Both the position numbers and the translations under genes were made by a program. DNA of 64,000 nucleotides from Betaproteobacteria bacterium (GTDB lineage Bacteria; Pseudomonadota; Gammaproteobacteria; Burkholderiales; Ga0077523), in the NCBI GenBank assembly GCA_025350245.1, contig JANXYG010000052.1, positions 12,265 through 76,264 on the forward strand. Direction: 5' to 3'. The first letter of the stretch is position 1, and each line of letters starts with the position of its first letter. The notes below the pieces were generated by a model. That model saw only the letters and a program-made list of their open reading frames with translations. It was not told where the DNA came from and did no database searches. Positions 10,536 through 26,530 of the stretch are shown piece after piece.

Positions 10536-11200
10536 CCGCCACGATGCGCACGAGTCCGCTCGCCGTTGCGGTTGCCGGTCGCAAGCCCGAACTGCGCGAG
10601 GTGCACGGCATGCCGGTGCCCGCGCGGTTCCCGGGTGAACGCGACACCTGGAAGGCAACGATCGGCATCTGCGACGTGTCGGCGCTGGTGCGTGCCGGCC
10701 TGAAAGGGCCCGGTGCCGAAGCCTGGCTCGCGGCTCGCAACGTGCCGGTCCCGGCGGCGGCCAACAGTTGGACCCATGCCGGCGGCGGACTGGTCGCACG
10801 GCTCGCCCGCACCGAGTTCCTGATCGAAGACGGCTGCGACGACGTCGCGGCCGCGCGACTGCGAGCCGAGCTGCAGGCGGGCGAGCCCGGCGTCTATCCG
10901 GTGATACGCCAGGACTGCGCGCTGGCGCTGGCGGGGGCCGCCGTGAACGAACTCCTGGTGCAGACCTGCAACGCCGACTTCGCCTCGCAATCGGCGGCCG
11001 ATTCCATCGTGACTCTCACCCAGATGGTCGGCGTGTCGGTGACGGTGCTGCGCGACGATCGCGGCACCGTGCCGTGCTACCGCGTCTGGTGCGACGGCAC
11101 CATGGGTCCGTATTTCTGGGAAACGCTCATCGGCATCGCCGAGGAACTCGGCGGTGGTCCGGTCGGCATCGCCAGCTTGTTCGCCGATACCGCCACCTGA
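10532..11200 (+). CDS. mgdD: Sarcosine-oxidase-family gamma subunit
   Basis: 222 aa from ATG 10532 (ATGA overlap with the alpha stop), in the frame of ORF 9797..11200. Size and position fit SoxG. Confidence 0.75.
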   Translation: MTATMRTSPLAVAVAGRKPELREVHGMPVPARFPGERDTWKATIGICDVSALVRAGLKGPGAEAWLAARNVPVPAAANSWTHAGGGLVARLARTEFLIEDGCDDVAAARLRAELQAGEPGVYPVIRQDCALALAGAAVNELLVQTCNADFASQSAADSIVTLTQMVGVSVTVLRDDRGTVPCYRVWCDGTMGPYFWETLIGIAEELGGGPVGIASLFADTAT

Positions 11201-11236
11201 TCCACCCACCACTGCAATCGCGAGGGGAAGCCGCCG

Positions 11237-12571
11237 ATGACACCCGCACAGGCCAGGAAGTTCTTCAAGGACAACGAGATCCGCTACATCCTCGCGCAGT
11301 TCGTGGACATCCACGGCACGGCGAAGGCCAAGGCGGTGCCGGTCGAGCACCTCGACATGGTCCTCGAGAACGGCGCCGGTTTCGCCGGCTTCGCGCTCTG
11401 GGGCTTCGGCATGGGCCCGCACGGCCCGGACTACATGGCGAAGGGCGACCTCACCACGTTGCAGGCGATGCCCTGGATGCCGGGCTTCGCGCGCATGGCG
11501 ACCTATGGCTACACCAACAACAAACCGTACGCGTACGACTCGCGGTACGCGCTCAAGCTGCAGCTCGACCAGCTCACGGCCAAGGGCCTCACGCTCTTCA
11601 CCGGTATCGAACCCGAGTTCATGCTGCTCAAGCGCGCGCCCGATGGCAGCATCGCGCCGTGCGATGACACCGATACCCTCGAGAAGCCCTGCTACGACTA
11701 CAAGGGGTTGGCGCGCAGCGCCGCGTTTCTCGACAAGTTCACGCAGTCGCTGCGCGCGGTGGGCATCGACGTGTACCAGATCGATCACGAAGACGCGAAC
11801 GGCCAGTTCGAGGTGAACTTCACCTACTCGGACGCGCTGACCTCGGCGGACCGCATCATCTTCCTCAAGATGGCAGCGTCGGAAATCGCCCACCAGATGG
11901 GCCTGATCGTGACCTTCATGCCCAAGCCGTTCTCGAATCGCACCGGCACCGGTTCGCACTTCCATCTGTCGATGGGCGACGGCAAGACCGCGAACCTGTT
12001 CCACGACGACAAGGACAAGCAGGGCCTCGGGCTGTCGAAGATGGCGTACCAGTTCCTGGGCGGCCTGCTGGCACACGCGCCCGGCCTGACCGCGCTGTGC
12101 GCACCGACGGTCAACTCGTACAAGCGGCTCGTGGTCGGCCGCGCGCTGTCGGGCGCGACCTGGGCGCCGGCCTACATCGCCTACGGCGACAACAACCGCA
12201 CCTGCATGGTCCGGGTGCCGTACGGGCGCCTGGAACTGCGCCTGCCGGATGGCGCGATCAATCCCTACCTGGTGACGGCCGCAGTGATCGGCGCCGGCAT
12301 GGACGGCATCGCGAACAAGGTCGATCCGGGTGCGCCGGTCAACGAAAACCTCTACGAGTGGTCGCCGAAGCAACTGGCCGACGCCGGCATCAAGGTCCTG
12401 CCGCAGAACCTCAGCGAGGCCCTGGATGCACTCGAAGCGGACGACGTCCTGTGCACAGCGCTCGGTCGCGATCTGGCGGCAGAGTTCATCCGGCTCAAGC
12501 GCATGGAATGGGTGGAGTACTCGCGCCATGTGTCGGCGTGGGAGGTCGAGCGGTACCTTGAATTCTTCTGA
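11237..12571 (+). CDS. gmaS: Glutamine-synthetase-family enzyme, predicted gamma-glutamylmethylamide synthetase
   Basis: 444 aa type-III-like GS fold ([28 protein letters not shown]). Sits between the mgd and mgs genes, as in described NMG clusters. Confidence 0.8.
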
Positions 12572-12665
12572 AATGAAACGTCCACCCCCAGGCTCCGCTG
12601 CGCTACGCCTTCCTCCTCGAGGGGGCCGGTGTCCTCGGGGGGGCCGGTTGTGGGCACCGTGGGAG
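12569..12665 (+). repeat. Structured intergenic repeat, family A (diverged 3' half)
   Basis: The same 12-mer TGAAATGAAACG contains the gmaS stop. It is followed by TCCACCCCCAGGCTCCGCTGCGCTACGCCTTCCTCCTCGAGGGGGCCGGTGTCCTCGGGGGGGCCGGTTGTGGGCACCG. Hairpin 2 stem is CGGTG/CACCG. Confidence 0.85.
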
Positions 12666-12672
12666 ACATGAC

Positions 12673-13569
12673 ATGTGCGGAATCGTAGGACTTCTGATCA
12701 AGAACCCGGCGCTGCGGCCCCGGCTCGGCGAGTTGATGACGCCCATCCTCGATGAGATGGCGGCGCGCGGGCCCGAGTCGGCCGGTCTGGCCGTGTTCAC
12801 CGACCAGCTCAGTGGAGTGCAGCGCAAGTACAGCATCCACGCGCCGATATGGGGCTACGACTGGTCGGGATTCGAGGCGAGATTCATCGAGCGCTTCGGC
12901 ACCGAAGCGCAACTGGCGGTGACGGGCAATCATGCCGTGCTGGTGTGCGACGAGGCGCCCGCCGCGGTCAAGAAATGGACGCAGGAGCACTTCGGGCAAT
13001 TGCACGTGCTCTCCGCCGGCCGTGTGATCGATGTCTACAAGGATATCGGCCACCCGAGCGAGATCGCGCTGCGCTACGACTTTCGCAAGCTGTCTGGCAC
13101 CCACGTCGTCGGGCACACGCGCATGGCTACCGAATCGGCGGTCACGCCGGATCGTGCCCATCCGTTCACCGCGGGCGAGGATTTCTGCCTGGTGCACAAC
13201 GGCACGATCTCGAATCCGTACATGATCCGGCGCAAGCTGGAGCATCGCGGCATCGTGTTCGAGACCGACAACGACACCGAGGCCGCAACCCGGTTCCTCG
13301 AGTGGCGCATGCGCGAAGGCGATTCGCTCGAGGACGCGCTGCGCCAGGGCTTTCGCGAGCTCGACGGCTTCTACACGTTCCTCATCGGGACCGACACCGA
13401 ACTCGCGCTGGTGCGCGATGCCTTCGCCTGCAAACCCGCGATCGTTGCCGAGACTGACGATTACGTCGCCATCGCCTCGGAGTTCCGCGGGCTCGCGCAT
13501 CTGCCGGGCGTCAACAATGCCCACCTCTTCGAACCGATGCCGGAGGAGCTCTACGTATGGAAAGTGTGA
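12673..13569 (+). CDS. mgsA: N-methylglutamate synthase subunit A (class-II glutamine amidotransferase, GltB N-domain-like)
   Basis: 298 aa beginning MCGIVGL (Ntn-type catalytic Cys2). Confidence 0.85.
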   Translation: MCGIVGLLIKNPALRPRLGELMTPILDEMAARGPESAGLAVFTDQLSGVQRKYSIHAPIWGYDWSGFEARFIERFGTEAQLAVTGNHAVLVCDEAPAAVKKWTQEHFGQLHVLSAGRVIDVYKDIGHPSEIALRYDFRKLSGTHVVGHTRMATESAVTPDRAHPFTAGEDFCLVHNGTISNPYMIRRKLEHRGIVFETDNDTEAATRFLEWRMREGDSLEDALRQGFRELDGFYTFLIGTDTELALVRDAFACKPAIVAETDDYVAIASEFRGLAHLPGVNNAHLFEPMPEELYVWKV

Positions 13570-14276
13570 TGCTCGACCGCTCGCCGGCGACCACCCGCAC
13601 CTTCGATCTCGAAGGCGGTTCGACGCGCGAGCTGAACCAGTTTCTGCACACTGACCTGGCGGCGAGCGGCGTGCGGCGGGTCGAGGTTCTCAACCCCAAG
13701 GGGGCCCACAGCATCGCGGTCGGCGTGAACCATCCGGTCGAGATCGACGTGCAGGGCCATGGCGGCTACTACCTCGGCGGCATGAACAAGCACGCCTCGA
13801 TCACGGTTCACGGCAACGTGGGCTGGGGTGTGGCCGAGAACATGATGTCGGGCATGGTGCGGGTGAAGGGCTTCGCGTCCGAATCCGCCGGGGCAACCGG
13901 CCACGGCGGACTGCTGGTGATCGAAGGCAATGCCAGCCTGCGTTGCGGTATCTCGATGAAGGGTATCGACATCGTGGTCGGCGGCGGCGTCGGCAACTAC
14001 TCCGCCTTCATGGCGCAGGCTGGCAGGCTCGTGGTCTGCGGCGACGCCGGCGATGCGCTCGGCGATTCGCTCTACGAGGCTGTTCTGTACGTGCGGGGAC
14101 GGATCAAGTCGCTGGGCGCGGATGCTCGCGAAGAGCCGATGGGCGCCGCCGATATTGCCGGTGTCGGTGACCTGCTGCGGCGGGCGGGCCTCGCCTACGA
14201 CCCGGCAGAGTTCAAACGCGTTGCGTCGGCACGCCAGTTGTATCACTGGAACGCCGATGCCAACCAGGAATACTGA
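13557..14276 (+). CDS. mgsB: N-methylglutamate synthase subunit B (GXGXG-motif, GltB C-domain-like)
   Basis: 239 aa with repeated G-rich beta-helix motifs (GHGGYYLGGMN, GNVGWGVAENM, GGGVGNYSAFM). 13-nt overlap with mgsA. Confidence 0.8.
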   Translation: MESVMLDRSPATTRTFDLEGGSTRELNQFLHTDLAASGVRRVEVLNPKGAHSIAVGVNHPVEIDVQGHGGYYLGGMNKHASITVHGNVGWGVAENMMSGMVRVKGFASESAGATGHGGLLVIEGNASLRCGISMKGIDIVVGGGVGNYSAFMAQAGRLVVCGDAGDALGDSLYEAVLYVRGRIKSLGADAREEPMGAADIAGVGDLLRRAGLAYDPAEFKRVASARQLYHWNADANQEY

Positions 14277-14310
14277 TCCGTACGCGCCGACCCAACCCCT
14301 GAGTGACCAC

Positions 14311-15681
14311 ATGAACAAGCCATTCGATCCCGTTTCCGCCAGCGCTGCGCACCGCATCCAGCGCGAGGAGTCCGCCGGCTACGATCGCCGGGTCATCGAC
14401 TACATCCATCACGCGGCCGCGAGCGGCCTGTACGAGATCCGCGGTCTAGGTGCGAAGCGTCATCTGCCGAGCTTCGACGACCTGGTGTTCCTGGCCGGCT
14501 CCGCCTCGCGGTATCCGCTCGAGGGGTATCGCGAACGATGCACGACCAAGACGGTGCTGGGCACGCGCTTCGCGAAGAAGCCGGTCGAGCTCGATATCCC
14601 GATCACCTTTGCCGGCATGAGCTTCGGGTCGCTCTCTGCGCGGGTGAAGCAGGCGCTCGGTCGTGCGGCGACGGCGCTGGGCACGTCGACGACCACCGGG
14701 GATGGCGGCATGACCCAGGAAGAACGCGAGTCGTCGAAGACGCTGGTCTACCAATGCCTGCCGTCGCGCTACGGCTTCAATCCGGACGACGTGCGCCGCG
14801 CCGACGCCATCGAGCTGGTGATCGGGCAGGGCGCCAAGCCTGGCGGCGGCGGGATGTTGCTGGGGCAGAAGGTCAATCCGCGCGTGGCCAAGATGCGCAC
14901 CCTACCGGAAGGCATCGACCAGCGCTCGGCCTGTCGGCATCCGGACTGGACCGGCCCCGACGACCTCGTGATCAAGCTCAACGAACTGCGCGAGATCACC
15001 GACTGGCAGATACCGATCTACGTGAAGATAGGCGCGACCCGTGTCTACCACGACGTGAAGCTCGCCGTGCACGCGGGTGCGGATGTGGTCGTGGTCGACG
15101 GCATGCAGGGTGGAACCGCTGCGACCCAGACCGTGTTCATCGAGAACGTGGGCATCCCGACGCTCGCGGCATTGCGCCAGGCGGTCGAAGCGCTCGAGGA
15201 AATGGACATGCGTGGCAAGGTGCAACTGGTGATCTCCGGCGGTATCCGTACCGGCGCCGACGTTGCCAAGGCGCTGGCGATGGGCGCGGATGCTGTCTCG
15301 GTCGGCCAGGGCGCGCTCATCGCGATGGGTTGCAACCACGACAGCTGGTTCGGCGATGGCGTGGCGCACTCGGCTGAAAGCGATTATGCGGTGCTCGGCA
15401 CCGCGCCCGGCTTCTGCCATCACTGCCATACCGGGCGGTGTCCGGTCGGCATCACCACCCAGGATGCGCTGCTGGAACAGCGTCTCGAGCCCGCAGTTGC
15501 CGCCAAGCGCCTGAAGAATTACTTCAAGACCATGAACATGGAGCTGACCACCATCGCCCGGGCGTGCGGCAAGTCGAACGTGCACAACCTGGAACGCGAG
15601 GATCTCGTCGCGCTGACGATCGAGGCGGCGGCGATGGCCAACTTGCCGCTTGCCGGCACGAACTGGATTCCAGGAGCCTGA
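14311..15681 (+). CDS. mgsC: N-methylglutamate synthase subunit C (FMN-dependent glutamate-synthase domain)
   Basis: 456 aa from the internal Met (MNKPFDP) of ORF 14053..15681. Motifs GQGAKPGGGG and DGMQGGTAA, and Cys-rich CHHCHTGRCPVGITTQD, are typical of GltB FMN-domain homologs. Confidence 0.85.
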   Translation: MNKPFDPVSASAAHRIQREESAGYDRRVIDYIHHAAASGLYEIRGLGAKRHLPSFDDLVFLAGSASRYPLEGYRERCTTKTVLGTRFAKKPVELDIPITFAGMSFGSLSARVKQALGRAATALGTSTTTGDGGMTQEERESSKTLVYQCLPSRYGFNPDDVRRADAIELVIGQGAKPGGGGMLLGQKVNPRVAKMRTLPEGIDQRSACRHPDWTGPDDLVIKLNELREITDWQIPIYVKIGATRVYHDVKLAVHAGADVVVVDGMQGGTAATQTVFIENVGIPTLAALRQAVEALEEMDMRGKVQLVISGGIRTGADVAKALAMGADAVSVGQGALIAMGCNHDSWFGDGVAHSAESDYAVLGTAPGFCHHCHTGRCPVGITTQDALLEQRLEPAVAAKRLKNYFKTMNMELTTIARACGKSNVHNLEREDLVALTIEAAAMANLPLAGTNWIPGA

Positions 15682-16334: not shown

Positions 16335-16982
16335 TTAGGACGCCCTGGCCGGGTCCGCGACGCGCCTGCCGAGGAACCCGCCGAGACGCGCCTGGGCCGC
16401 CTGCTTCTCCTCCAGCGACATCTGTTCCTGCACCGGCTCCAGGGCGTTCAGGGCGTGCCCCGCCCCGTGATTCGCGGCGAGCGTCAGCCAGACGAAGGCC
16501 TCGATCCGGTTCTTGGGAACGTCATCGTTGCCGCAGTAGAGATAGCCGAGTCGCGCCTGCGATGGCGTGTGCCCCAGTTCTGCCGCCCGCCGGTACCACG
16601 ATAGCGCGATGTCGACGTTGCGGTCGACGCCCTGCCCCTTCATGTGAAAGACCGCAAGATTGAACATCGCATGCGTGTCGCCCTGTTCGGCGGCCTTCGC
16701 CAGCCACTTGGCGGCGTCCGCAAAACTCTGGTCCACACCCTTCCCGAGCCCGTACATCGCGCCGACGTTGTTCTGCGCGAGCCGGTTGCCGGCCTGGGCC
16801 GAGCGCAGGTACCACTCGAACGCCTTCGCGTCGGAGACCTCCACGCCGAGACCGCCTTCGTAGAGTGTCCCGATCCACGCCTGGCTGTCTGCGTCGCCGT
16901 TCTCGGCCAGCGGCAGCCAGTGCTCCAGCGCCGCCGGGTAGTTGCCCTGGCGATAGTTCTCGAGTGCATGGTCCATGCTCAT
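16335..16982 (-). CDS. Sel1-like (SLR/TPR-type) repeat protein, no signal peptide
   Basis: 215 aa from the internal Met (MSMDHALENY) of ORF 16335..17198. At least four A-x-x-W-(Y/L)-x-x-A-A-x-x-G repeats, e.g. AFEWYLRSAQAGN, AAKWLAKAAEQGD, ALSWYRRAAELGH. GAGG RBS. Confidence 0.75.
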   Translation of the reverse strand: MSMDHALENYRQGNYPAALEHWLPLAENGDADSQAWIGTLYEGGLGVEVSDAKAFEWYLRSAQAGNRLAQNNVGAMYGLGKGVDQSFADAAKWLAKAAEQGDTHAMFNLAVFHMKGQGVDRNVDIALSWYRRAAELGHTPSQARLGYLYCGNDDVPKNRIEAFVWLTLAANHGAGHALNALEPVQEQMSLEEKQAAQARLGGFLGRRVADPARAS

Positions 16983-17065: not shown

Positions 17066-18334
17066 TCAACCCGCGCCCGCGTTGACGCTGGCGTTGAGCG
17101 AGCGACCGGGATTCGTGTAGAGCGGTCGCGACACATACTCGTGGCGCGCGAGCAGTCGCTCGACGACAAATCGCTGGAGATCGAGAGCCATCTCGCACGT
17201 TTCGAAGGTCGCGGGTTGGTCGTCAATCCGCTGCGACAGGAACGGTGACGGATTGTCGTTGCCGGCGATGTCGCGCTGGGCGCGTGCGGCCCGACCGGAC
17301 CACAGGTCGATCGCCGCGACCGCGGCGCTCATGGTTTCGTCGGGTACCCCGGTCGCCTCGGCGCCGGCGCCATGATCGCGTTGAAAGACGTCGACCTGGA
17401 GCAGGGTTTCGGTCAATCCGATCGGCTGCACGATCACCGTCGACATCCAGCGGTCATGCAGCTGCAGCAGCAGGTTGGGGTAGATCCAGATGACGTGGGA
17501 GCCCGGTCCCCGGTCGAGCGCCGGAAGCCGGGCATCGTGCAGTTCCAGGGGACGGGTCTGTTCGTCGGCCGCATCGAAGGAGATCCCCCAGAAGGCCTCC
17601 GTCGGGGGCGCCGATGCAGCGTGCGATGCAGCCGTGTCCGATGGCGGCATGGTCGTGGCGCTGACCGGTTCGAGCACGCTGCGCGGGAACAGCTTCCAGT
17701 TGAAATCGCCGACGCGCTGGAAGCGGCCGACGCGATTTATGCCGGACGCGAGATAGTGGCGCAGGGGCGAGGCCAGGCTTCCCAGCTGGTCTCCGAGATC
17801 CTGTCGGTCGACATCGAGATTGGCGAATGCCAGCGTGCCCAGCGCGGCAATCTGCACCGGGATCAGCTTGTCGGGATTGTTGCCGAGGTACATGTACATC
17901 TCCGGCGTCTCGACACCGCCCGGTTCGGCGTGCATCACATCGCGGTCGCGCGAGTGTCCGCAGGAGGTGAAGGAGCAGGTCGTCTTCCTGCCGGTCTGGC
18001 ACTGGCGCGGCACGAAGCGGCACCCGCCGTGCTGCGCGAAATTGAAATGACCCTCAAGGCCCAGGTCTGCGCGGCGGCGAAGGTGAACACCATGGCTTCC
18101 GATCGTGAACGGCAGGATGTCGCCGACATCGGGGATCCGGTCCTGGTGTCCCATGCAGACCCAGGCGCGCGTCCAGATCTTCTCGTCCTCGAGTTCGGCG
18201 AACGCCTTCGAGCGATAGGCAAGTGGCGGGAGCGTGGTGCCGAGGCCGAACGGCTTCAGCGCTGAATCGTAGAAAGCACGACCGGTCAGATCGTGTCCCT
18301 GGTCGTAGTAACCAAGCAAGGGTTGGAGTGCCAT
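17066..18334 (-). CDS. Rieske-oxygenase alpha-subunit-like protein with non-canonical or degenerate metal-ligand motifs
   Basis: 422 aa from the Met of ORF 17066..18361. The N-terminal region AFAELEDEKIWTRAWVCMGHQDRIPDVGDILPFTIGSHGVHLRRR..GHFN has a RHO-alpha-like layout, with a C-terminal FNWKL motif. In place of CxH..CxxH it has FAQHGGCRFVPRQCQTGRKTTCSFTSCGHS, and no DxxHxxxxH follows NWK. Confidence 0.6.
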   Translation of the reverse strand: MALQPLLGYYDQGHDLTGRAFYDSALKPFGLGTTLPPLAYRSKAFAELEDEKIWTRAWVCMGHQDRIPDVGDILPFTIGSHGVHLRRRADLGLEGHFNFAQHGGCRFVPRQCQTGRKTTCSFTSCGHSRDRDVMHAEPGGVETPEMYMYLGNNPDKLIPVQIAALGTLAFANLDVDRQDLGDQLGSLASPLRHYLASGINRVGRFQRVGDFNWKLFPRSVLEPVSATTMPPSDTAASHAASAPPTEAFWGISFDAADEQTRPLELHDARLPALDRGPGSHVIWIYPNLLLQLHDRWMSTVIVQPIGLTETLLQVDVFQRDHGAGAEATGVPDETMSAAVAAIDLWSGRAARAQRDIAGNDNPSPFLSQRIDDQPATFETCEMALDLQRFVVERLLARHEYVSRPLYTNPGRSLNASVNAGAG

Positions 18335-18436: not shown

Positions 18437-20848
18437 TCAACCGCCCCGGGAACTCGAGACCTTGTTGCCGGGCGGATCGTAGTCGGCGCGCCCGCGATGC
18501 TTGAAGGCATCCTGGGGTGGCGGCGGCAACGGGCCGTCCTTCATGAAGCGATCGAGCACGTTCTTGACCAGGCGAGAGATATTGTTCTTCGCCGGGTCAC
18601 CGTTGTTCCAGGGAAGCGATCCGCAGAATGCAATGGAACTGAACGCGAAGCAGCCGCCGCCATTCGGGGTCTCGTGATAGGCGATGTCCGAGCGCACGCG
18701 AGGATGCTGCGTTCCGTCCAGGCCTTGCTGGTTGAAGCCGAAATCCTCCATGACGAGCAGGTAGCCTTCGGTGTGCCTGCCAGCCGACGTTGCCACCACC
18801 AGGGTATGCGGAGGAGACCCGAGCATGGTGTCGACGATATCCAGTTCGGTGCCGGCTGCGCCGCCACCCACGAGGCCGAAGTTACCCAGCTTCTCGTCGT
18901 AACCGATACCTTCGAATGCCCACGCGACGCGCGCGTCGTTGCTCTCCGGTGTCCGGCTGTAGTAGGTCGAGATGTCGAAACCTTCGGAAGACATGCCCGT
19001 GCCCGCGACGGTGTGCAGGTATCGGCCACGATAGCGCCACATCCCGCCGAGTTCGCCGGTCGATTGGTGGTAGTACTCGCCGGGGTCGGCGCGCCAGGTG
19101 CGGATGCCGGACTCGCAGCGACGCATCTCGGTGATCACGCCGCGGCCCAGATGGTCGTATCCAGGGTGATAGGAATGCACCCAGTACCAGCCGTCGGCGC
19201 CCATGTACATGAACCGGCCGCCTTGCTGCGTGTAGTTGTGCAAGGCATCGAGCTGCGGCCCGGTGTTGTGCTCCGGGTGGGAGCCGCTGATCACGACGTT
19301 GTAGCCCTTGATCCGGGCGAGGCCGTCGTAGTTCACGTCCTCGTCGGTGATCACGTCGTAGTTGTAGCCGTTGACCTCCAGCCAGTAGATCAGGTGCAGG
19401 TCCGCCGGATACTGCCACGGCGACTGGCTCAGGAAGTGGTCGTATTTGGGGCGCACGCTCAGGATCGGGCGCAGACGCGACGACAGGCAAAGGCCGCTGC
19501 CGTCGGTGTGCGTGTCGTAGATCGATCCGCCGTACTCACGGTGCTCCGACAGGAACATGTTCTGGTGCTGCATGATCGGCACGCGGTACACCAGCAACTC
19601 GGCGCCGCCCGCATTGTTGGCGAGGTGCTCGTTCGCGTAGGCCATGTAGCTGATCGTGGGCATCATGACGGCGATCTTCGCCGTCTCCTGCCCGACATGC
19701 GGCACCACGAAGAACGGAACATAGTCCTCGTCGCCTTCGTTGGTGGTGAGCTTCGCGGCATAGCACGCGCTCTTCAGGTCCTTGGGGACCTCCCATTCGA
19801 AATCCACATCCCAGCGGGCATCGTCCACGTCGTCGTCATGGAAGTGGATCGCGCCGTACTGGCCGGCCGCATGCTTCCAGTCGAATTCATGGCCGGACCA
19901 GTTGTAGCCGGTCATCGCGCGCGTCGGGCAGTTGACGATGCTGGCGTGATGCAGGTACGGCCCCTTGTCCGCGGCGACGATCGTGTTGATGCCGACGCTG
20001 AAATCCCACGCGGCGACGATGCACTCGGAGAGCTTCGGGGTGGGGCCGCTGCCACGGCGCTCGTCCAGGCCGGTCTGTGCGCCGAGCTTCATGGTCTCGA
20101 TCTCGAGCCGGGACAGCGCCCGGTTGCAGACGCGGGGGCTGTCGATCTTGCCGTTGTAGTGACCGGAGATCACGATTCCCTTCGGCACCGAGGACGCGGC
20201 CTTCACGCCGCCGGCACTGTCACCGACAAAGCCGGCGATGACGCACGGGATGCCGCTGTTCCTGACCTTCTCCTTGATGGTGGTCGTCACCGGCGCAATC
20301 TCGGGATCGAGCGCATAGGTGATCTGGGGCTCGTGATACAGAATCGCCTCGCCGGTCTTCGCATCGAAGGTGGCCGCGAGAAAATGCCAGGCGTGATCGC
20401 GCAGCGGCGCGCTGGTGGCCAGCTTGACGCCATTCACGCGCAGCTCGGCACAGCCGGCCTCGTTGATAAACAGCCCGTAGCCGCCTTCGGCCGCGGACCA
20501 CTTCGTGACCAGTCCCTGCGGGCCGTGCTTCCAGTACTTCGGGTGCGTCTTCGGCGTCGTCGGCCAGATCCAGCACTGGAGCGTGAAGCTGTCGAGCTTG
20601 AAACGGATGTTGTCGAGCACATAGCCATACGAGCCGCTGTGAACGACCTGCTTGCGCCCGGTGTATTCGGCGTTCACCGAGACGCTGATCGGCTTCTCGA
20701 TGAAGCCCGGCCCGCGCGGATTGGTGTCACCGTTGATCATCTTGACGATCTCGGCCTTGTACTTCTTCGGGCCGTCGCAGTTCACGAAGAACTTGATCTT
20801 GTCCCCTGGATGGACGCCGAACTTGTCGGCATAACCTGTGAGTCGCAT
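18437..20848 (-). CDS. dmfA2: N,N-dimethylformamidase large (beta) subunit family protein
   Basis: 803 aa from the internal Met (MRLTGYADKFGVHPGDKIKFFV) of ORF 18437..20962, with an AAGGAGA RBS. It has an N-terminal beta-sandwich, a LamG-like segment (LQCWIWP..HAWHFLAATFDAKTGEAILY) and a C-terminal region (AVMMPTISYMAYANEH.., VISGSHPEH). I recall this layout from DMFase large subunits. Not confirmed by search. Confidence 0.7.
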   Translation of the reverse strand: MRLTGYADKFGVHPGDKIKFFVNCDGPKKYKAEIVKMINGDTNPRGPGFIEKPISVSVNAEYTGRKQVVHSGSYGYVLDNIRFKLDSFTLQCWIWPTTPKTHPKYWKHGPQGLVTKWSAAEGGYGLFINEAGCAELRVNGVKLATSAPLRDHAWHFLAATFDAKTGEAILYHEPQITYALDPEIAPVTTTIKEKVRNSGIPCVIAGFVGDSAGGVKAASSVPKGIVISGHYNGKIDSPRVCNRALSRLEIETMKLGAQTGLDERRGSGPTPKLSECIVAAWDFSVGINTIVAADKGPYLHHASIVNCPTRAMTGYNWSGHEFDWKHAAGQYGAIHFHDDDVDDARWDVDFEWEVPKDLKSACYAAKLTTNEGDEDYVPFFVVPHVGQETAKIAVMMPTISYMAYANEHLANNAGGAELLVYRVPIMQHQNMFLSEHREYGGSIYDTHTDGSGLCLSSRLRPILSVRPKYDHFLSQSPWQYPADLHLIYWLEVNGYNYDVITDEDVNYDGLARIKGYNVVISGSHPEHNTGPQLDALHNYTQQGGRFMYMGADGWYWVHSYHPGYDHLGRGVITEMRRCESGIRTWRADPGEYYHQSTGELGGMWRYRGRYLHTVAGTGMSSEGFDISTYYSRTPESNDARVAWAFEGIGYDEKLGNFGLVGGGAAGTELDIVDTMLGSPPHTLVVATSAGRHTEGYLLVMEDFGFNQQGLDGTQHPRVRSDIAYHETPNGGGCFAFSSIAFCGSLPWNNGDPAKNNISRLVKNVLDRFMKDGPLPPPPQDAFKHRGRADYDPPGNKVSSSRGG

Positions 20849-20897: not shown

Positions 20898-21338
20898 TCA
20901 GGTGGCGGTCCAGTTGTCGGAGCGACGCTTCCAGCCTTCGTGGAAGTGCTCCGGCATGCCATCGAATTCGGCCATCTCCTCCAGTCGCATCAGGAAGATC
21001 GCGTGTTGCACCTCCTGCTCGTCGGAGAACACGCGTTCGTCCACCAGTTCCGGCGGCACGCCGCGGATGCCGGACAGCCTGCCGATGCGCCATTCCTTCT
21101 CGAGCTTGGTGCAGATCACCACCAGCTTGTTCTTGGCGGGCAGGGTCCGCATGCGCAGCAGGACGCGATTCAGGAGCAGATCCTCGTGGATGCCGCCCGT
21201 GACCACGGTCGTGTCGCCCGGTGTCTCGCACATCAGCACGGAGCAACCCGCAACACCCTTCATGGACTTCATGCACGCCTCGTGTTCTGCCACGAGCCGG
21301 TCGTACTCCGGTGTGCCCTTCCTTGGAATCCGAATCAT
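20898..21338 (-). CDS. dmfA1: Putative N,N-dimethylformamidase small (alpha) subunit
   Basis: 146 aa (MIRIPRKGTPEYDRL..) with a strong RBS (GAGGAGACTCGAATG), 49 nt upstream of the large subunit. Assigned only by size and synteny with described dmfA1-dmfA2 pairs. Confidence 0.5.
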   Translation of the reverse strand: MIRIPRKGTPEYDRLVAEHEACMKSMKGVAGCSVLMCETPGDTTVVTGGIHEDLLLNRVLLRMRTLPAKNKLVVICTKLEKEWRIGRLSGIRGVPPELVDERVFSDEQEVQHAIFLMRLEEMAEFDGMPEHFHEGWKRRSDNWTAT

Positions 21339-21478: not shown

Positions 21479-22174
21479 CTAGATGGTCAGGTGCTGCTCG
21501 ATCAGGTCGTCACTCAGATCCTCCACCGGGCCCTTGGCCGCGATGGCCCCCTTGTCCATGATCACGAAGCGGGTCGCGGCGTTCTTGGCGAACTCCACGT
21601 TCTGTTCGATCAGGATCACGGTGATGCCGAGCTGGCGGTTCAGGCTGATGACGAGTTGCTGGATCTGCTCGACGATGTTGGGCTGGATTCCCTCGGTGGG
21701 CTCGTCGAGGATCAGGAGGCTCGGATCCGTGGCCAGCGCGCGCGCGATGGCGAGTTGCTGGGCCTGGCCGCCCGACAGGATGCCGGCGCTCTTGTCGAGG
21801 TTGTCGGCGAGATAGGGAAACAGATCGAGGACCTTCGCGGGCACTTCGGCATTGCCATCCTTGCGCGCGAAGGTGCCCAGCAGGATGTTCTCCCGGACCG
21901 AGAATTTCGGCAGGATCCCGCGGCCCTGGGGGATGTAGCCGATGCCCGCCGCCGCACGCCGATGGGTGGGCAACTGGGCAACTTCCTGACCGTTGATCCG
22001 GATGGATCCGGTGACGCGCGTGGTCAGGCCCAGGATGGTTCGTGCGAGGGTGGTTTTGCCGACCCCGTTGCGACCGATCACCGACAGCAGGTCGCCTTTC
22101 GCGAGATCGAGCGACAAGCCCTGGATGATCGGGGTCGACCCGTAATAGGAGGTGACGTCGCGCAGCTCAAGCAT
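21479..22174 (-). CDS. ABC transporter ATP-binding protein (UrtE/LivF-like; urea/short-chain-amide importer family)
   Basis: 231 aa from the Met of ORF 21479..22198. Walker A GRNGVGKTT, signature LSGGQAQQL, Walker B LLILDEPTEG. 8-nt overlap with the upstream ATPase gene. Confidence 0.85.
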   Translation of the reverse strand: MLELRDVTSYYGSTPIIQGLSLDLAKGDLLSVIGRNGVGKTTLARTILGLTTRVTGSIRINGQEVAQLPTHRRAAAGIGYIPQGRGILPKFSVRENILLGTFARKDGNAEVPAKVLDLFPYLADNLDKSAGILSGGQAQQLAIARALATDPSLLILDEPTEGIQPNIVEQIQQLVISLNRQLGITVILIEQNVEFAKNAATRFVIMDKGAIAAKGPVEDLSDDLIEQHLTI

Positions 22175-22919
22175 GGGAGGCCTTGCCTTCCTTGCCAAGA
22201 TAGACGCGCCGGACTTCGCTGTCGTTCTCGATCTCCGCGATGGTCCCCTCGGCGAGAAACCGGCCCATGTGCATCACGGTTACGCGCTCGGCGATCTGGC
22301 GCACGAACCCCATGTCGTGCTCGACGACCAGCAGCGTGTGCGAGCCCTTCAGGCTGTTGAAGATCTCGCCGGTCTTGTAGGTCTCCTGCGCGGTCATGCC
22401 GGCCGTGGGCTCGTCCATCAGCAGGACCTGGGGGTTCTGGATCAGCACCATGCCGATCTCAAGCCACTGCGTCTCGCCGTGGGAGAGCTCCTCGGCCTTG
22501 TCCCGCAGGCGCCGCGCCAGACCGACCTGTGTCGCAACCTGCCGCACGCGCGTCTGCGCGGCGCCGTCGCGCAGGACGAACATGTTGCGGATCGGACTCG
22601 TGGTCCGGTTGTGGGCGACCGTGAGGTTTTGCTGCACGGTCAGGCCCTTGAACACCGCCGGCACCTGGAACTTGCGACCCAGACCGTGACGCACCCGCAG
22701 ATGCTCGGGCCAGTGGGTGATGACAGTGTCGTTGAGCGAGATGATTCCCGAGGTTGCCTTCTGCCGTCCGGTGATGAGGTCGAGCGTCGTGGTCTTGCCG
22801 GCGCCGTTGGGGCCAAGGAGGCAGCGCAGTTCACCTTGATGGACCTTCAGGTCGAAGGTGTCGACCACTTTCAACTGGTCGTATGCCTTGGTCAGGCCCT
22901 TGACTTCGAGCAGCGCCAT
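22167..22919 (-). CDS. ABC transporter ATP-binding protein (UrtD/LivG-like)
   Basis: 250 aa. Walker A GPNGAGKTT, signature-like LSHGETQWL, Walker B LLMDEPTAG. Confidence 0.85.
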   Translation of the reverse strand: MALLEVKGLTKAYDQLKVVDTFDLKVHQGELRCLLGPNGAGKTTTLDLITGRQKATSGIISLNDTVITHWPEHLRVRHGLGRKFQVPAVFKGLTVQQNLTVAHNRTTSPIRNMFVLRDGAAQTRVRQVATQVGLARRLRDKAEELSHGETQWLEIGMVLIQNPQVLLMDEPTAGMTAQETYKTGEIFNSLKGSHTLLVVEHDMGFVRQIAERVTVMHMGRFLAEGTIAEIENDSEVRRVYLGKEGKASHA

Positions 22920-24043
22920 CAGACCTGACTCCGCGGTGCGGCAGAGGCCGCGACTGGTGGCGTCCCGGGCTCGGCGTCGGGTCCGGGGGCCTTCGAACGT
23001 CCGATGCGGGCAAGCGCCATTTCGAGGAGACCCGCGAGGCCGTTCGGCAGGAAGCGCACGATGACGATGAACAGGCCCCCGAGCACCAGCAGGAAGCCGT
23101 ACAGCAGTTCGTCACCGAGATAGCTCTGGATGCCATTGACGAAGAACGCGCCGATGATCGCCCCCAGCAGGGACATGCGTCCGCCGACCGCCGCCCAGAT
23201 CACCATACTCACGCTGAACTGGACCTCGAGCGCGGTCGGGGAAACGTACTGCACGATCATCACCCACAGGACGCCGGCGACCGCGGCGATGAATCCGGAG
23301 ATCGTGAAGATCGTGACCTGGTATCCCGCCACGCTGTAGCCGAGGAAGCGGGCGCGTTCCGGATCGTCGCGGATCGCCTGCACCACCAAGCCGAACTTGG
23401 TGCTGAGCAGGAGCTTCATCCCGAGCGTCAGCGCGGCGAGGAACGCCAGGACGATCCAGTACGCCTCGTGGCTGTACGGATCGATGGCGTGACCGGCGAT
23501 GTTCAGGGGGGCCGGCGGCGAGATGCCGTTGAAGCCGGCGGTGTAGGGCTGCATGTCGAACGCCATGCTGTACCAGGCCGAGAGCATCGCCAGGGTGACG
23601 ATCGCCACGAACACGCCCACCAGGCGCGCCTGGAACATCATGGCGCCGAACACGCCGAAGAAGATGGTCGGCACGATCAAGGCCAGGGCGATACCCGTCG
23701 GGGTGTGCCAGAAGGGGATCCACAGCGCCGGCAGTTCGGTCAGCTCATTGGTCAGCATGAAGCTCGGGATCGGCGCGTTGACCGGATCCTGCGACTGCAT
23801 CTGCATGGTCATGCCCATGCCGTAGGCGGCGAGGCCGAACGCGATGCCCTGACCGAGGCTCAGGATCCCGCCGAAGCCCCAGACCACGCTGACCGACAGC
23901 GCCAGCATGCCGAGCACGATGAACCGGGAGAACAGATTGGTCGTGAAGGCGTTCTCGATGAACATCGGCAGCACGGCCAGGACCGCGAAGAACACGAAGT
24001 AGACGATCCACTGCAGGGTGCGGTTGTCGTAGAGGGAATTCAT
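22919..24043 (-). CDS. ABC transporter permease (UrtC/LivM-like)
   Basis: 374 aa from the internal Met (MNSLYDNRTLQWIVYFVFF) of ORF 22919..24154; polytopic and hydrophobic. Start uncertain: there is no clear RBS, and the track start is a TTG at 24154. Confidence 0.75.
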   Translation of the reverse strand: MNSLYDNRTLQWIVYFVFFAVLAVLPMFIENAFTTNLFSRFIVLGMLALSVSVVWGFGGILSLGQGIAFGLAAYGMGMTMQMQSQDPVNAPIPSFMLTNELTELPALWIPFWHTPTGIALALIVPTIFFGVFGAMMFQARLVGVFVAIVTLAMLSAWYSMAFDMQPYTAGFNGISPPAPLNIAGHAIDPYSHEAYWIVLAFLAALTLGMKLLLSTKFGLVVQAIRDDPERARFLGYSVAGYQVTIFTISGFIAAVAGVLWVMIVQYVSPTALEVQFSVSMVIWAAVGGRMSLLGAIIGAFFVNGIQSYLGDELLYGFLLVLGGLFIVIVRFLPNGLAGLLEMALARIGRSKAPGPDAEPGTPPVAASAAPRSQV

Positions 24044-24128
24044 CGTTGCGTGTGGTCGGGCATGGTGTCGGCTGCAAGGCAGCGAGCTGCGCAGACTGGA
24101 AACCGCGGGAACCGGGTGGTCACGGGCA

Positions 24129-25034
24129 TCACCTGCGACCCAGCGATTCGGCAAACAGGCCCTGGGGCCTGAATCGAAGGAACACGACCACCAGCAGGAA
24201 GAGCCAGAACTTGGCGAAGGTACCGTTGGTGAAGTAGGCGAACACCGAATAGATTTCGCCCAGCCCGACTGCGCTGACGAGACTGCCGATCAGCGAACCG
24301 ACGCCGCCGACCACGACGACCAGGAATGCCTCGACGATGTAGCCGCTGCCCATGTCGGGGAAGACGTTCTTGATGGCACCGAACATCGCGCCTGCCAGAC
24401 CGGCGAGACCGGCACCGTAGGCGAAGGTGAGCGTGTAGACCCGGCCTGTATCGATGCCGTGGGCGGAGGCGATCTCCTTGTTCTGCATGACGGCGCGCAC
24501 CATCAGGCCCACCCGCGTGCGATGCATGAGCCACCATGTGCCCGCGAAGGTTGCCAGCGTGACCGCGATGACGAAGAGCCTGAACAGGGAAAGTGAGAAC
24601 ACCCAGAACTGCACGGAGGAGTTCAGGAATTCCGGGCTGGCGATGTTCTTGGGTTCAGGTCCGAGTATCAGCCGGACCGTCTGGATCAGCACCAGCGACA
24701 ATCCCCAGGTTGCCAGCAACGTGTCGAGCGGGCGACGATAGAGATAGCGGACGAGGCCGAGTTCGATCACGGCGCCGATGGCCGCGACGATGACGAATGC
24801 GCATGGAATGCACGCGAGGAACGGGACGCCGAGGTAGCGCTCGAGCACGAACGCGGAGTAGGCGCCGAGCATGACGAATTCGCCGTGCGCCATGTTGATC
24901 ACGCCCATGGTGCCGTAGACGATCGCGAGGCCGAGCGCGGCGATCAACCAGATGCTGGCGACGCTGAGTCCGATCAGCAGCGCGTTCATGAACGGACCGA
25001 ACGCGAAGGCTGTCCAGAAGTGGTCAACGCTCAT
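24129..25034 (-). CDS. ABC transporter permease (UrtB/LivH-like)
   Basis: 301 aa polytopic membrane protein (GVINMAHGEFVMLGAY is typical of the LivH family). Confidence 0.85.
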   Translation of the reverse strand: MSVDHFWTAFAFGPFMNALLIGLSVASIWLIAALGLAIVYGTMGVINMAHGEFVMLGAYSAFVLERYLGVPFLACIPCAFVIVAAIGAVIELGLVRYLYRRPLDTLLATWGLSLVLIQTVRLILGPEPKNIASPEFLNSSVQFWVFSLSLFRLFVIAVTLATFAGTWWLMHRTRVGLMVRAVMQNKEIASAHGIDTGRVYTLTFAYGAGLAGLAGAMFGAIKNVFPDMGSGYIVEAFLVVVVGGVGSLIGSLVSAVGLGEIYSVFAYFTNGTFAKFWLFLLVVVFLRFRPQGLFAESLGRR

Positions 25035-25129
25035 CGAGCAGCTCCGTGCTGATGGAGTCGACCGGTGGCAATCGGTGGCAGAGGCGTGGATCCGGATTCA
25101 ATTGCGGTGGCCGCGGTGGTCCGACAGAG

Positions 25130-25196
25130 AAAAAAAGGCGTCACGTGAAGAGGAGAGGTCTTCGTGCAGGGCAAAGGATCCTGCGCGTGACGCCTT
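25130..25196 (-). terminator. Intra-operon hairpin plus U-tract after the binding-protein gene (putative partial terminator or attenuator)
   Basis: Sense strand: AAGGCGTCACG..(inner GCAGG/CCTGC hairpin)..CGTGACGCCTT followed by TTTTTTT. Starts 9 nt after the SBP stop. Confidence 0.45.
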
Positions 25197-25204
25197 GCCG
25201 TGCA

Positions 25205-26530
25205 CTACAGGACGTTCTTCAGGACCTTGCCGTCCTTGGTGTGAAGCCCGTCGAACTTGCAGACGCCGCGCTCGGGGTAGATCACGAACGGATCGGGAGC
25301 GATGTGGGCGTCGGCCGCCTTGACGATCTTGAACTGGCCGTTGGCCTGGCACTGACCGATCTTGGGTTTCATGTAGAGGTGGCAGGTCTCGTCGAAATAG
25401 ACCAGGCCTTCGGGCGACACGTCGTCCTCGATGCGGATGCCGGGGGTGACGTCGCGGATCATGCGCGGCGTGATGGCCTCGACGCTGCCGGCCTTGGCCA
25501 GTGCCTTTTCGAACGCGTACTTGAAGGCCCAGACCGACAGGTAGGTCTCTTCCATGTTGTAGTGGGTCACGCCGCCCTTGCCGTACTTGCTGGCGAGGTA
25601 TTCCTCGACGAACTTCTTGTTGGTCGGCGTATCCAGGGTCTGGAAGTACGGTGCCGACAGGAAGTGACCGGCACCGAACTCGGCACCCATGGCGCGGGTT
25701 TCGATTTCACCGGTGGTCAGCGCGGCGATCGGCATCTTGTCGACCTTGAAGCCTTCCTGCTTGAACTGCTTGTGCAGGGCGATATCCGAGTCGCCGACCA
25801 CGGTGGAGAAGATGAAGTCGGGCTTGGTCTGGCGGATCTTGTTGAAGATGGACGAGAAGTCGGAGCCGCCGAGCTCGACGTACTCTTCTCCGAGCAGCTC
25901 GCCGCCGACCTTCTCCAGCCAGACCTTCGCATTCTTGTTCGATTCCTTCGGCCAGATGTAGTTGGAGCCGACGAAGTAGGTCTTCTTGCCGAAGCTCTTG
26001 ACCATGAACGGGATCAGGTCCTGCGAGTGCTGGTTCGCCAGCGGACCGGTGTTGACGATGTTCTGCGTGCACTCGCGACCTTCGTAGCAGGTCGGGTAGT
26101 ACAGCAGGTGGTCACGTGCCATCACGACCGGCGCCATCGCGCGGCGGCTCGCCGACGTGTAGCCGCCGAAGGTGGCGATCACGCGATCCTTCAGGATCAG
26201 CTGGCTGATCTTCTCGGAGAACACCTTGATGTCCGACTTGGCGTCGATGATCACCGGCTCGACCTGCATGCCGGCGATGCCGCCCGCCTTGTTGATCTTG
26301 TCGATCGCGAACTGAACAACCTGGTTCGAGTCGGTCTCGACCACGGCAAGGGCGCCGGTGAGGGAGAACAGCACGCCGACCTTGATCTTGTCGCCTTTCT
26401 TCACCCAGGGCGTCGACTGCGCCCCCGCGTCCTTCACGAAGAAGTACGGGAACCCTCCTAGTGATCCTGCGCCAGCGGTAGTGGCGATGGCGGTGCTGGT
26501 TTTGAGAAAGGTTCTCCGTTTTCCGTCCAT
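25205..26530 (-). CDS. Periplasmic substrate-binding protein of a urea/short-chain-amide ABC transporter (UrtA/FmdD-like), Tat-type signal
   Basis: 441 aa from the internal Met of ORF 25205..26581. MDGKRRTFLKTSTAIATTAGAG has a twin-Arg-like signal. Type-I PBP (Leu/Ile/Val-binding fold) pattern KIKVGVLFSLTGALA. AGGAGAG RBS. Confidence 0.8.
   Translation of the reverse strand: MDGKRRTFLKTSTAIATTAGAGSLGGFPYFFVKDAGAQSTPWVKKGDKIKVGVLFSLTGALAVVETDSNQVVQFAIDKINKAGGIAGMQVEPVIIDAKSDIKVFSEKISQLILKDRVIATFGGYTSASRRAMAPVVMARDHLLYYPTCYEGRECTQNIVNTGPLANQHSQDLIPFMVKSFGKKTYFVGSNYIWPKESNKNAKVWLEKVGGELLGEEYVELGGSDFSSIFNKIRQTKPDFIFSTVVGDSDIALHKQFKQEGFKVDKMPIAALTTGEIETRAMGAEFGAGHFLSAPYFQTLDTPTNKKFVEEYLASKYGKGGVTHYNMEETYLSVWAFKYAFEKALAKAGSVEAITPRMIRDVTPGIRIEDDVSPEGLVYFDETCHLYMKPKIGQCQANGQFKIVKAADAHIAPDPFVIYPERGVCKFDGLHTKDGKVLKNVL

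Follow-up and report, generated by a model that had tools for sequence, protein, structure and literature searches.

A Rieske-oxygenase-like protein with four conserved cysteines is a candidate accessory protein of a DMFase-family amidase clade

The gene at positions 17066–18334 of the window, by which we mean the whole analysed stretch of 64,000 nucleotides, codes for a protein with the fold of a Rieske-oxygenase (RHO) alpha subunit, in which the usual cluster ligands have been exchanged and four cysteines are conserved. This Rieske-like protein may well be a non-catalytic Cys4 accessory protein that serves a single clade of the DMFase-family Fe(III) amidases, perhaps in assembly or activation. 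Its position directly behind the amidase gene is constant in every genome examined, and therefore it is most likely a helper of the amidase and not an oxygenase. That it is simply a third, structural subunit is almost as likely as a role in assembly or activation. In the window the gene belongs to a strictly conserved cassette which also holds genes for an UrtA-like ABC transporter, the DMFase-like alpha and beta subunits, a protein of about 100 aa and a Sel1-repeat protein. The features are as follows.

16335–16982, minus strand: Sel1-repeat protein, 215 aa, obligate downstream partner gene (Pfam PF08238, four repeats, E=1.8e-36)
17066–18334, minus strand: Rieske-oxygenase-alpha-like protein with Cys4 motif, predicted to be dead as an oxygenase (ORF, translation, phmmer/profile, AlphaFold2, Foldseek)
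17135–17794, minus strand: putatively vestigial catalytic (SRPBCC-like) domain, residues 181–400, NWK and PN motifs kept, iron ligands missing
17495–17674, minus strand: hypervariable segment, residues 221–280, the site of the two iron-binding His of RHOs (gap fraction 25–36%)
17795–18232, minus strand: N-terminal Rieske-fold domain, residues 35–180, the conserved and presumably functional core (61% mean identity)
17945–18043, minus strand: rewired cluster-binding loops N98–D130, NFAQHGGCRFVPRQCQTGRKTTCSFTSCGHSRD (translation; conservation across 157 loci)
18437–20848, minus strand: DMFase-family large (beta) subunit, 803 aa (PF20254, E=5e-90; PDB 6LVB, E=3e-158)
20898–21338, minus strand: DMFase-family small (alpha) subunit, 146 aa (the identical gene in locus L002 carries a precomputed PF26354 DMF_alpha match)
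21479–26581, minus strand: UrtA-like (urea/short-amide type) ABC transporter with two ATPases, two permeases and a substrate-binding protein (Pfam PF13433/PF13458; gene calls taken from locus L002)
26866–27201, plus strand: conserved protein of about 100 aa, no family match, fifth cassette member (tblastn), here displaced upstream of the transporter genes

The open reading frame encodes 422 aa, is intact, and has a GAGGAA Shine-Dalgarno sequence 5 nt ahead of its ATG. A protein identical to it (P0001) is recorded on 10–11 contigs, the frame is uninterrupted at every locus examined, and at least 30 positions are invariant in a family spanning alpha-, beta- and gammaproteobacteria. Between the cassette genes no convincing terminator was found. 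An Rfam search gave no match either, and the idea of a riboswitch for the operon was dropped. A plasmid origin of the window was also considered and rejected: a homologue is located on the P. aminophilus chromid pAMI5 only, and the window itself looks chromosomal (ptsP, gshAB, metH, glyS).

A sequence-only reading of this DNA had described the layout as that of RHO alpha subunits, and profile and structure comparisons bear this out. Searches with phmmer against the PDB and with a profile matched BphA and CntA, the latter being the closest solved relative (profile match over residues 31–382, E=1e-21). The AlphaFold2 model (pLDDT 84.4, pTM 0.88) shows the two-domain fold, Rieske plus SRPBCC-type, and the best Foldseek matches were TPADO, CntA and Stc2 (E about 1e-16, TM 0.5–0.64). 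The thresholds of the curated RHO alpha families are not reached. The search for the Rieske family PF00355, which the sequence-only reading had proposed, gave no match even at E<=10; PF00848 scored 18.5 bits against a cutoff of 24.9 bits, and the NCBIfam equivalogs HcaE and GbcA, GbcA being among the best matches, gave 33–35 bits against cutoffs of 670–830. In public records the protein is currently called "Rieske (2Fe-2S) protein", "ring-hydroxylating oxygenase subunit alpha" or "biphenyl 2,3-dioxygenase", and because of its ligand data all three names are contradicted. A literature search for a third DMFase gene or an atypical Rieske pseudo-oxygenase returned nothing relevant, and we found nothing published on the Rieske-like protein.

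The canonical CxH...CxxH ligands of a [2Fe-2S] cluster are absent. In the HMMER alignments Ala100 stands at the position of the first Rieske Cys and His102 at that of the first His, Cys120 corresponds to the second Cys, and Thr123 occupies the position of the second His. This mapping is the same against BphA and against CntA (Cys86/His88/Cys106/His109), which rules out that canonical ligands had simply been misaligned by eye and confirms the Ala noted earlier at the first Cys position. The residue numbers given in the sequence-only reading (His102, Cys105, Cys112, Cys120, Cys125, His127) are right by translation, and its placement of the motif at about 17954–18031 hit the right region, off by a few codons from the actual 17945–18043. 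The cysteines are spaced C105-x6-C112-x7-C120-x4-C125, and the window protein carries this motif together with His84, Asn98 and Asp130. Among 157 independent loci, H84, H102, C105, C112, C120 and C125 are each present in 157, while none of the loci has Cys at position 100 or His at position 123 (0/157 in both cases). Such a ligand pattern is far beyond chance. From the set of Cys and His residues pointed out before, the four cysteines are conserved and His84 was missing. His127 is variable (Tyr in 117, His in 29 and Phe in 11 of the 157 loci) and was rejected as a ligand, being Tyr in most members. In divergent relatives all four cysteines are kept in 25 of 26, the sole exception lacking Cys105, and H84, N98 and D130 are kept as well. 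His81 and His102 are lost there; the latter, invariant in the core family only, gives way to Gln, Phe, Tyr, Leu or Ala, and was rejected as a universal ligand of the extended family. The Cys4 loops are the lowest-confidence part of the AlphaFold model (pLDDT 50–69), and to our knowledge C-x6-C-x7-C-x4-C is no known cluster motif. Taken as a sequence pattern, these data strongly indicate a different metal site, Cys4 instead of 2Cys-2His, which most likely still holds metal, either as an Fe-S cluster or as a single Fe or Zn.

Conservation is unequally distributed over the protein. Compared with 95 relatives, the N-terminal domain is on average 61% identical and the C-terminal domain 25%, and in the pAMI5 homologue of P. 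aminophilus the N-terminal domain is the only recognisable part. The complete list of conserved positions in the C-terminal domain comprises E208, N212, W213, K214, W283, P286, N287, L288, Q303, P304, A349, Q353, E378, L395 and H398, with FNWKL at residues 211–215. Downstream of NWK, where the sequence-only reading had already noted the lack of a facial-triad motif, no conserved His was found among 96 members. Glu205, His208 and His213 of CntA fall opposite an unconserved and often deleted stretch: in segment 221–280 the top-residue fraction is 0.17–0.23, and the 96 members have between 4 and 67 residues there. The third iron ligand, Asp323 in CntA, corresponds to Asp315 here, which no more than 41 of 96 members retain. 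Neither the 2-His-1-carboxylate triad nor the bridging Asp/Glu is found, and divergent members are only 250–330 aa long. By these alignments the mononuclear oxygenase iron site is absent from the whole family.

The linkage to the amidase is strict in both directions. In 80 out of 80 species genomes the Rieske-like gene directly follows the beta gene, and in a reverse test with metagenome loci picked via the beta gene it was found directly downstream in 76 out of 76. In all 80 species genomes, as far as their sequence reaches, the alpha and beta genes lie directly upstream and the Sel1 gene downstream; the latter was seen at 59/59 metagenome loci that extend 2.5 kb or more beyond the Rieske-like gene and at 56/56 genome loci of at least 15 kb. 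Even divergent relatives, with 33–38% identity to the window protein in tblastn, still sit behind a beta gene. A gene family unlinked to the amidase, the other finding that would have spoken against the sequence-only reading, is rejected on the basis of these counts and of the divergent relatives. That reading had missed two obligate partners, the Sel1-repeat protein and the protein of about 100 aa. A tblastn match to the latter exists in 83 of 93 sequences, the remaining ten including short contigs and stretches which stop before this part of the cassette. Its gene is located, in loci from alpha- and gammaproteobacteria, between or after the Rieske-like and Sel1 genes. It has no Pfam or NCBIfam match and, modelled at a pLDDT of 92, no significant fold match in the PDB, the best being YjgF/RidA with E=0.25. 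At locus L012 the Rieske-like, small and Sel1 genes overlap one another by their start and stop codons.

All-against-all clustering of the ORFs from 56 neighbourhoods returned the transporter, alpha, beta, Rieske-like, small and Sel1 proteins as the only conserved families. No reductase or ferredoxin gene is conserved in them, and a hidden one nearby was therefore dismissed. DNA-binding regulators vary by lineage (XRE-cupin, GAF with Trans_reg_C, MarR/TetR) while the Rieske-like protein is constant. The transporter genes are conserved in 48–53 of 56 genome loci; the substrate-binding protein reaches 339 bits with NCBIfam UrtA, below the cutoff of 493 bits, and matches a Tat-signal domain model weakly (E 0.006). 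The layout behind DMF_alpha and DMFA2_C genes, with Sel1 and ~100-aa genes, is what we propose to call a DMFase-clade accessory cassette, a grouping made here and no curated family; the window shows it.

The alpha subunit is 62–89% identical in the related loci that reach it, and our own Pfam scan assigned the window copy to no family. The beta subunit keeps the Fe(III) 2-Tyr-1-Glu site, with Y399, Y440, H519, E521, E657 and F693 all retained. From the full catalytic set of DMFases (Y399, Y440, E521, H519, E657, N547) only N547 is changed: it is Asp in 159 of 159 loci of the clade (codon 19193–19195 in the window) and Asn in pAMI2 and DM1. In a characterised DMFase the mutant N547A had no catalytic activity against DMF, and the iron there is a redox-sensitive Fe(III) bound by two tyrosinates (PMC7686228). 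A bona fide DMFase is not supported as the partner, given about 39% identity (38–40%) to validated enzymes and the Asp. By sequence comparison the partner is a distinct clade of the DMFase family, its DMF activity being putative. Hence the sequence-only reading, which had suggested a dead scaffold or maturation partner of DMFase, stands as regards the lost iron site and the gene linkage, and has to be amended as regards the partner.

We propose that the ancestor was a CntA/GbcA-type Rieske oxygenase alpha subunit which lost its mononuclear-iron active site, and that its 2Cys-2His Rieske site was converted into an all-Cys site (Cys105, Cys112, Cys120, Cys125; His84 is also invariant). The work would be done by the N-terminal metal-binding domain, with the degenerate C-terminal domain serving as scaffold only and probably preserving an oxygenase-like oligomer. 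Jointly with the Sel1-repeat and ~100-aa proteins, the Rieske-like protein would contact and serve this amidase clade, its most likely job being to load the tyrosinate-ligated iron or to hold its oxidation state right. For the DMFase family in general a maturation factor is not evidently required, because the Paracoccus DMFase contained iron as purified and no helper protein was reported (PMC7686228). This clade might need help, as it carries Asp at the essential Asn547 and validated enzymes occur without the three accessory genes. The partnership as such is suggested by synteny, which, strict as it is, agrees equally well with a role as structural subunit or regulator, or with a pathway step of its own. 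Across classes the Rieske-like protein is 33–50% identical compared with 74–93% for the beta subunit, and would therefore be unusual for a tightly bound stoichiometric subunit.

A more specific sub-case of the accessory role, likened to XylT-type ferredoxins, is that of a strict redox partner, whose Cys4 Fe-S cluster would swap one electron with the amidase iron and so re-oxidise or re-reduce it after inactivation. The cysteines are indeed located in the ancestral cluster-binding loops, the Fe(III) with its two tyrosinates is redox-sensitive (PMC7686228), and Asp for Asn547 puts an extra carboxylate beside the amidase iron site. However, the cassette encodes no electron source or sink, and the variation of His102 and of the polar residues flanking the cysteines, as seen in divergent relatives, suggests a structural site more than one tuned for redox work; we regard this strict form as rather unlikely. 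An enzyme with new chemistry, such as one that demethylates DMF or DMA oxidatively at the nitrogen or acts in some other way on the amide or its products, appears improbable. Its active site would be the Cys4 site or one newly formed by His81, His84, Glu378 and His398, and the first, third and fourth of these are conserved to about 90% or more in the core family and the second is invariant. The closest solved relatives, CntA and Stc2, act on quaternary amines, GbcA is among the best NCBIfam matches, and the scan of window ORFs brought up no gene for DMA oxidation. Against this, no member has a facial triad, the pocket segment shrinks to as few as four residues, the shortened divergent members have lost His81 and His102, and no reductase or ferredoxin is conserved nearby. 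Furthermore, conversion of DMA to MMA cannot be the general role, since most cassettes have no methylamine-pathway genes near them. From the earlier suggestion of a different cluster with new chemistry, only the different metal site is thus retained; N-demethylation finds no support in a variable pocket without reductase.

Pseudo-enzymes and Sel1-repeat adaptors commonly have regulatory roles. The Rieske-like protein could likewise be a metal- or ligand-binding pseudo-enzyme which, with the Sel1 adaptor, tunes amidase or transporter to redox state, iron or substrate, and it would fit that its catalytic domain comes from a ligand-binding fold class and that it stays constant where DNA-binding regulators are lineage-specific. 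We consider a sensor or regulator of this kind slightly less probable still than new chemistry: the protein lacks DNA-binding and signalling domains, its ligand pocket is unconserved, and its frame overlaps with structural genes, which suggests stoichiometric production. Finally, a decaying oxygenase gene without function, carried along in the operon, might be imagined from the loss of both canonical metal sites and from a C-terminal domain that diverges fast and shrinks. Intact frames, invariant positions, the well-conserved N-domain and retention of the gene at all loci in both synteny tests already contradict such a relic, which is scarcely credible.

Solvent degradation is routinely concluded from the presence of DMFase-family genes, whose products are known from ocean metaproteomes. 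Here one large and very conserved clade always has three uncharacterised proteins alongside and a changed active-site residue. The constant accessory proteins and the Asp at position 547 make the annotation "DMFase" doubtful for this clade, and alpha and beta subunits expressed alone may not yield the native enzyme. In a wider and more tentative proposition, which we hold to be possible but doubtful, the cassette would represent a metalloenzyme system of five proteins that hydrolyses amides, has so far gone unrecognised and is widespread among methylotrophs and among proteobacteria of marine and fresh waters. A new all-Cys centre on a Rieske fold would there service the tyrosinate-iron of the amidase by electron exchange or metal delivery; the substrate of the amidase would be a natural small amide taken up via the UrtA-like transporter and not the synthetic solvent DMF. 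For metalloprotein evolution and cluster-ligand engineering, the Rieske-like protein is relevant as a natural example of an oxygenase scaffold without catalysis, its metal site apparently rebuilt by cysteines for a presumed accessory role.

Compared with the CntA/GbcA/Stc2-type alpha subunits, which are quaternary-amine monooxygenases and demethylases, the window protein shares the order of an N-terminal Rieske and an SRPBCC-like fold, colinearity with CntA over the full length, and the framework motifs E..E.IW...W, GD, NWK and FPN. It differs from them by Ala and Thr in place of the first Cys and second His, three new invariant cysteines, the missing Glu/Asp bridge, 2-His-1-carboxylate and reductase gene, and scores below the Pfam thresholds. 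The validated DMFase loci (luxR-dmfA1-dmfA2; P. aminophilus pAMI2 and Methylobacterium sp. DM1) encode the same alpha/beta family, with the Fe(III) ligands Tyr, Tyr and Glu as well as His519 and Glu657 in common. In contrast to the window, they have Asn547, lie between IS elements with a LuxR regulator, and are without Rieske-like, Sel1 and small-protein genes. XylT-type [2Fe-2S] ferredoxins have the plant-type ferredoxin fold and reactivate catechol 2,3-dioxygenase. A functional analogy is possible in that both would be non-catalytic metal-binding proteins in a catabolic operon beside a mononuclear-iron enzyme, the metal being predicted in our case; however, the folds are unrelated, there is no sequence relationship, the cluster type of XylT is known and the direction of electrons would differ. 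In nitrite reductase the small subunit, NirD, consists of one small domain with a cluster-free Rieske fold. Like the Rieske-like protein in its presumed accessory role, NirD kept this fold after loss of the 2Cys-2His site; unlike NirD, which has no replacement Cys4, the window protein combines four invariant cysteines with a degenerate catalytic domain.

The Rieske-like protein keeps the fold of an oxygenase alpha subunit, but neither of its two metal sites. The genes considered here are located as follows.

5866–15681, plus strand: apparently complete N-methylglutamate pathway for methylamine (mgdABCD-like, gmaS, mgsABC), adjoining the cassette
16335–16982, minus strand: Sel1-repeat protein, 215 aa, cytoplasmic, always after the Rieske-like gene
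17066–18334, minus strand: Rieske-like protein, intact ORF, 422 aa
18437–20848, minus strand: DMFase-like beta subunit, Asp for Asn547 at 19193–19195
25205–26581, minus strand: UrtA-like substrate-binding protein of the transporter
26866–27201, plus strand: protein of about 100 aa, here upstream of the transporter genes

A GAGGAA ribosome-binding site precedes the ATG at 18334 by 5 nt, the codon-position GC of the Rieske-like ORF is that typical of real genes (window GC 65.5%), and an identical protein is recorded on 10–11 contigs. A Pfam search gave no Rieske match even at E ≤ 10; the only match, PF00848, stayed below threshold (18.5 bits, cutoff 24.9). The NCBIfam equivalogs HcaE, GbcA and AndAc scored 26–35 bits against cutoffs of 670–830. 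With phmmer against PDB sequences biphenyl dioxygenase alpha was matched (E=1e-10), and a profile of 96 family members matched carnitine monooxygenase CntA, the closest solved relative, over its full length (E=1e-21). Ala100, His102, Cys120 and Thr123 align with the CntA Rieske ligands Cys86, His88, Cys106 and His109, respectively. The bridge and iron ligands Glu205, His208 and His213 of CntA face an unconserved stretch, and its third iron ligand, Asp323, aligns with Asp315, which is kept in 41 of the 96 members. An AlphaFold2 model from the 96-sequence alignment reached a pLDDT of 84.4 and a pTM of 0.88, its weak part being exactly residues 100–130 (pLDDT 50–69). In the PDB, Foldseek related this model to terephthalate dioxygenase, CntA and stachydrine demethylase (E about 1e-16, TM 0.5–0.64). 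The CntA alignment and these matches bear out the oxygenase-alpha layout of the sequence-only reading, and the alignment also bears out the missing iron motif. Its residue numbers for the rewired stretch were also correct, its nucleotide range was off by a few codons: the translation places NFAQHGGCRFVPRQCQTGRKTTCSFTSCGHSRD at nt 17945–18043.

Across 157 independent loci His84, His102, Cys105, Cys112, Cys120 and Cys125 are invariant and His81 is found in 156. Position 100 is Ala in 147, His in 9 and Val in 1, position 123 Thr in 146, Ala in 10 and Leu in 1, and position 127 Tyr in 117, His in 29 and Phe in 11. An exhaustive phmmer search of 1.84 billion representative proteins with the N-domain yielded 77 proteins at E ≤ 1e-30 and 113 at E ≤ 1e-10. 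The weaker matches are shorter proteins (250–330 aa) which retain Cys112, Cys120, Cys125, His84, Asn98 and Asp130. Cys105 and Pro109 are each missing from one of 26 divergent relatives, and His102 is replaced by Gln, Phe, Tyr, Leu or Ala among these. In that match list, the closest canonical oxygenases have CxH...CxxH. The deeply conserved feature, as judged from these alignments, is thus a Cys4 set, C-x6-C-x7-C-x4-C; from the mixed Cys/His list proposed before, the four cysteines survive, while His102 is not kept in divergent relatives and His127 is variable. In alignment A4 (P0334–P0348), a Cys is already present at the Cys112 position in six of the seven closest canonical Rieske oxygenases, hence at least one of the four may predate the rewiring. 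Mean identity to relatives is 61% in the N-domain (residues 35–180) and 25% in the C-domain (181–400), where only framework residues such as NWK, W283, PN and QP are conserved and the segment expected to hold the iron histidines varies from 4 to 67 residues.

In the window a DMFase-family alpha/beta pair lies upstream and the Sel1-repeat gene downstream of the Rieske-like gene, all on the minus strand; the pair was recognised by PF20254 for beta and by a DMF_alpha call on an identical gene in another locus, L002. Of 185,579 species genomes scanned by motif, 188 encode a relative. Among the best 80 of these 188, from alpha-, beta- and gammaproteobacteria, the beta gene is directly upstream in 80 of 80, and Sel1 follows wherever the contig is long enough. 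Cultured hosts include Hansschlegelia, Hyphomicrobium, Methylobacterium, Ancylobacter, Bosea, Mesorhizobium, Rhodopseudomonas and Pseudomonas. Conversely, 80 metagenome loci were chosen by the beta protein alone (73–89% identity). Of these, 76 extend 700 nt or more downstream, and every one of the 76 has the Rieske-like gene; where the downstream sequence reaches 2.5 kb or more, Sel1 occurs in 59 of 59 and the gene for the ~100-aa protein in 57 of 59. An occurrence apart from DMFase genes, which would have spoken against the earlier proposal, was therefore not seen in either direction. Of four divergent relatives inspected in full, P0298 and P0306 come after an alpha and a beta gene that are both complete, and the other two, P0311 and P0313, after beta gene fragments.

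The ORFs of 56 loci, each 15 kb or longer, were clustered without bias. The families that proved conserved were those of the transporter (substrate-binding protein, permeases and ATPases) and the alpha, beta, Rieske-like, small and Sel1 proteins, and no others. The remaining families occur in at most 24 loci each, except clusters at 33 and 41 loci that overlap with the genes for alpha and beta, probably as alternative-frame ORFs. No conserved reductase or ferredoxin appeared in these 56 neighbourhoods.

The cassette has a fifth obligate member, the ~100-aa protein (MVFSVQQIKYE...DPWIYKPA...). In most lineages its gene is found either between the Rieske-like and Sel1 genes or behind them; other copies are L012:9122–9427, where start and stop codons overlap, and L001:6562–6888 on the minus strand. 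The protein matches no family in Pfam or NCBIfam, and its confident AlphaFold model (pLDDT 92) has no significant PDB match, so the predicted fold may be undescribed. The best NCBIfam likeness of the Sel1-repeat protein is to the phenylmercury resistance protein MerG, far below cutoff. The substrate-binding protein, conserved in 48 of 56 neighbourhoods, scores 339 bits with the UrtA model (cutoff 493) and weakly matches a Tat-signal model (E 0.006). The transporter is urea-like but probably not urea-specific, suggesting that its substrate is small and resembles urea or an amide.

In the window an XRE-cupin regulator separates the cassette from the N-methylglutamate pathway, of which mgdA, mgdC, gmaS and mgsC match the expected Pfam families here and in betaproteobacterial relatives; for the other mgd and mgs genes the assignment follows ORF position only. 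This neighbour hints at methylamine, for example from N-methylformamide, as a product in this organism. It is common to the betaproteobacterial relatives but missing from most cassettes and other lineages. An N-demethylase, as had been suggested, is not supported, on four counts: the iron site is missing, the pocket decayed, no electron supply is conserved and most cassettes lack methylamine-pathway genes. The conservation also rules out a relic.

These findings agree with a non-catalytic accessory protein that putatively binds metal and is specific to this amidase clade; it would act together with the Sel1 adaptor and the ~100-aa protein. We favour a role in assembling or activating the tyrosinate-iron centre of the amidase, in which it might load iron or control the oxidation state; XylT may serve as an analogy for such a redox or activation role. 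A role as a mere structural subunit is almost equally probable, and the data do not separate the two. The public names of the family are generic and are contradicted by the predicted ligands, and a full-text literature search found no paper on it. The fold is known; the putative metal-binding motif and the genomic role appear new.

The linkage to the DMFase family holds, identity with a validated DMFase does not. The window beta subunit matches Paracoccus DMFase (6LVB, E=3e-158), but shares only 38–40% identity with the validated pAMI2 and Methylobacterium DM1 enzymes. Of the residues important by mutagenesis or structure, Y399, Y440, E521, H519, E657 and F693 are kept and N547 alone is changed; the N547A mutant of the characterised enzyme is inactive (PMC7686228). 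All 159 loci of the Rieske-linked clade have Asp at position 547, where the validated DMFases have Asn, so the substrate or metal site of this clade may differ from that of true DMFase. Between the window and L013–L172, from alpha-, beta- and gammaproteobacteria, amino-acid identity is 74–93% for the beta subunit, which is unusually high, versus 33–50% for the Rieske-like protein. This speaks for a very strong constraint on the amidase and against a recent transfer. The sole plasmid or chromid copy found, on P. aminophilus pAMI5, is 72–73% identical to the window beta subunit and has, besides the small protein, a shortened form of the Rieske-like gene under the annotation "biphenyl 2,3-dioxygenase". 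The validated loci, in contrast, lack all three accessory genes; they are luxR-dmfA1-dmfA2 units with IS transposase genes on both sides in pAMI2 (L173) and on one side of the examined pLVM1 stretch (L174). They are carried by mobilizable or conjugative plasmids, whereas the Rieske-linked cassette is mostly chromosomal and transporter-linked.
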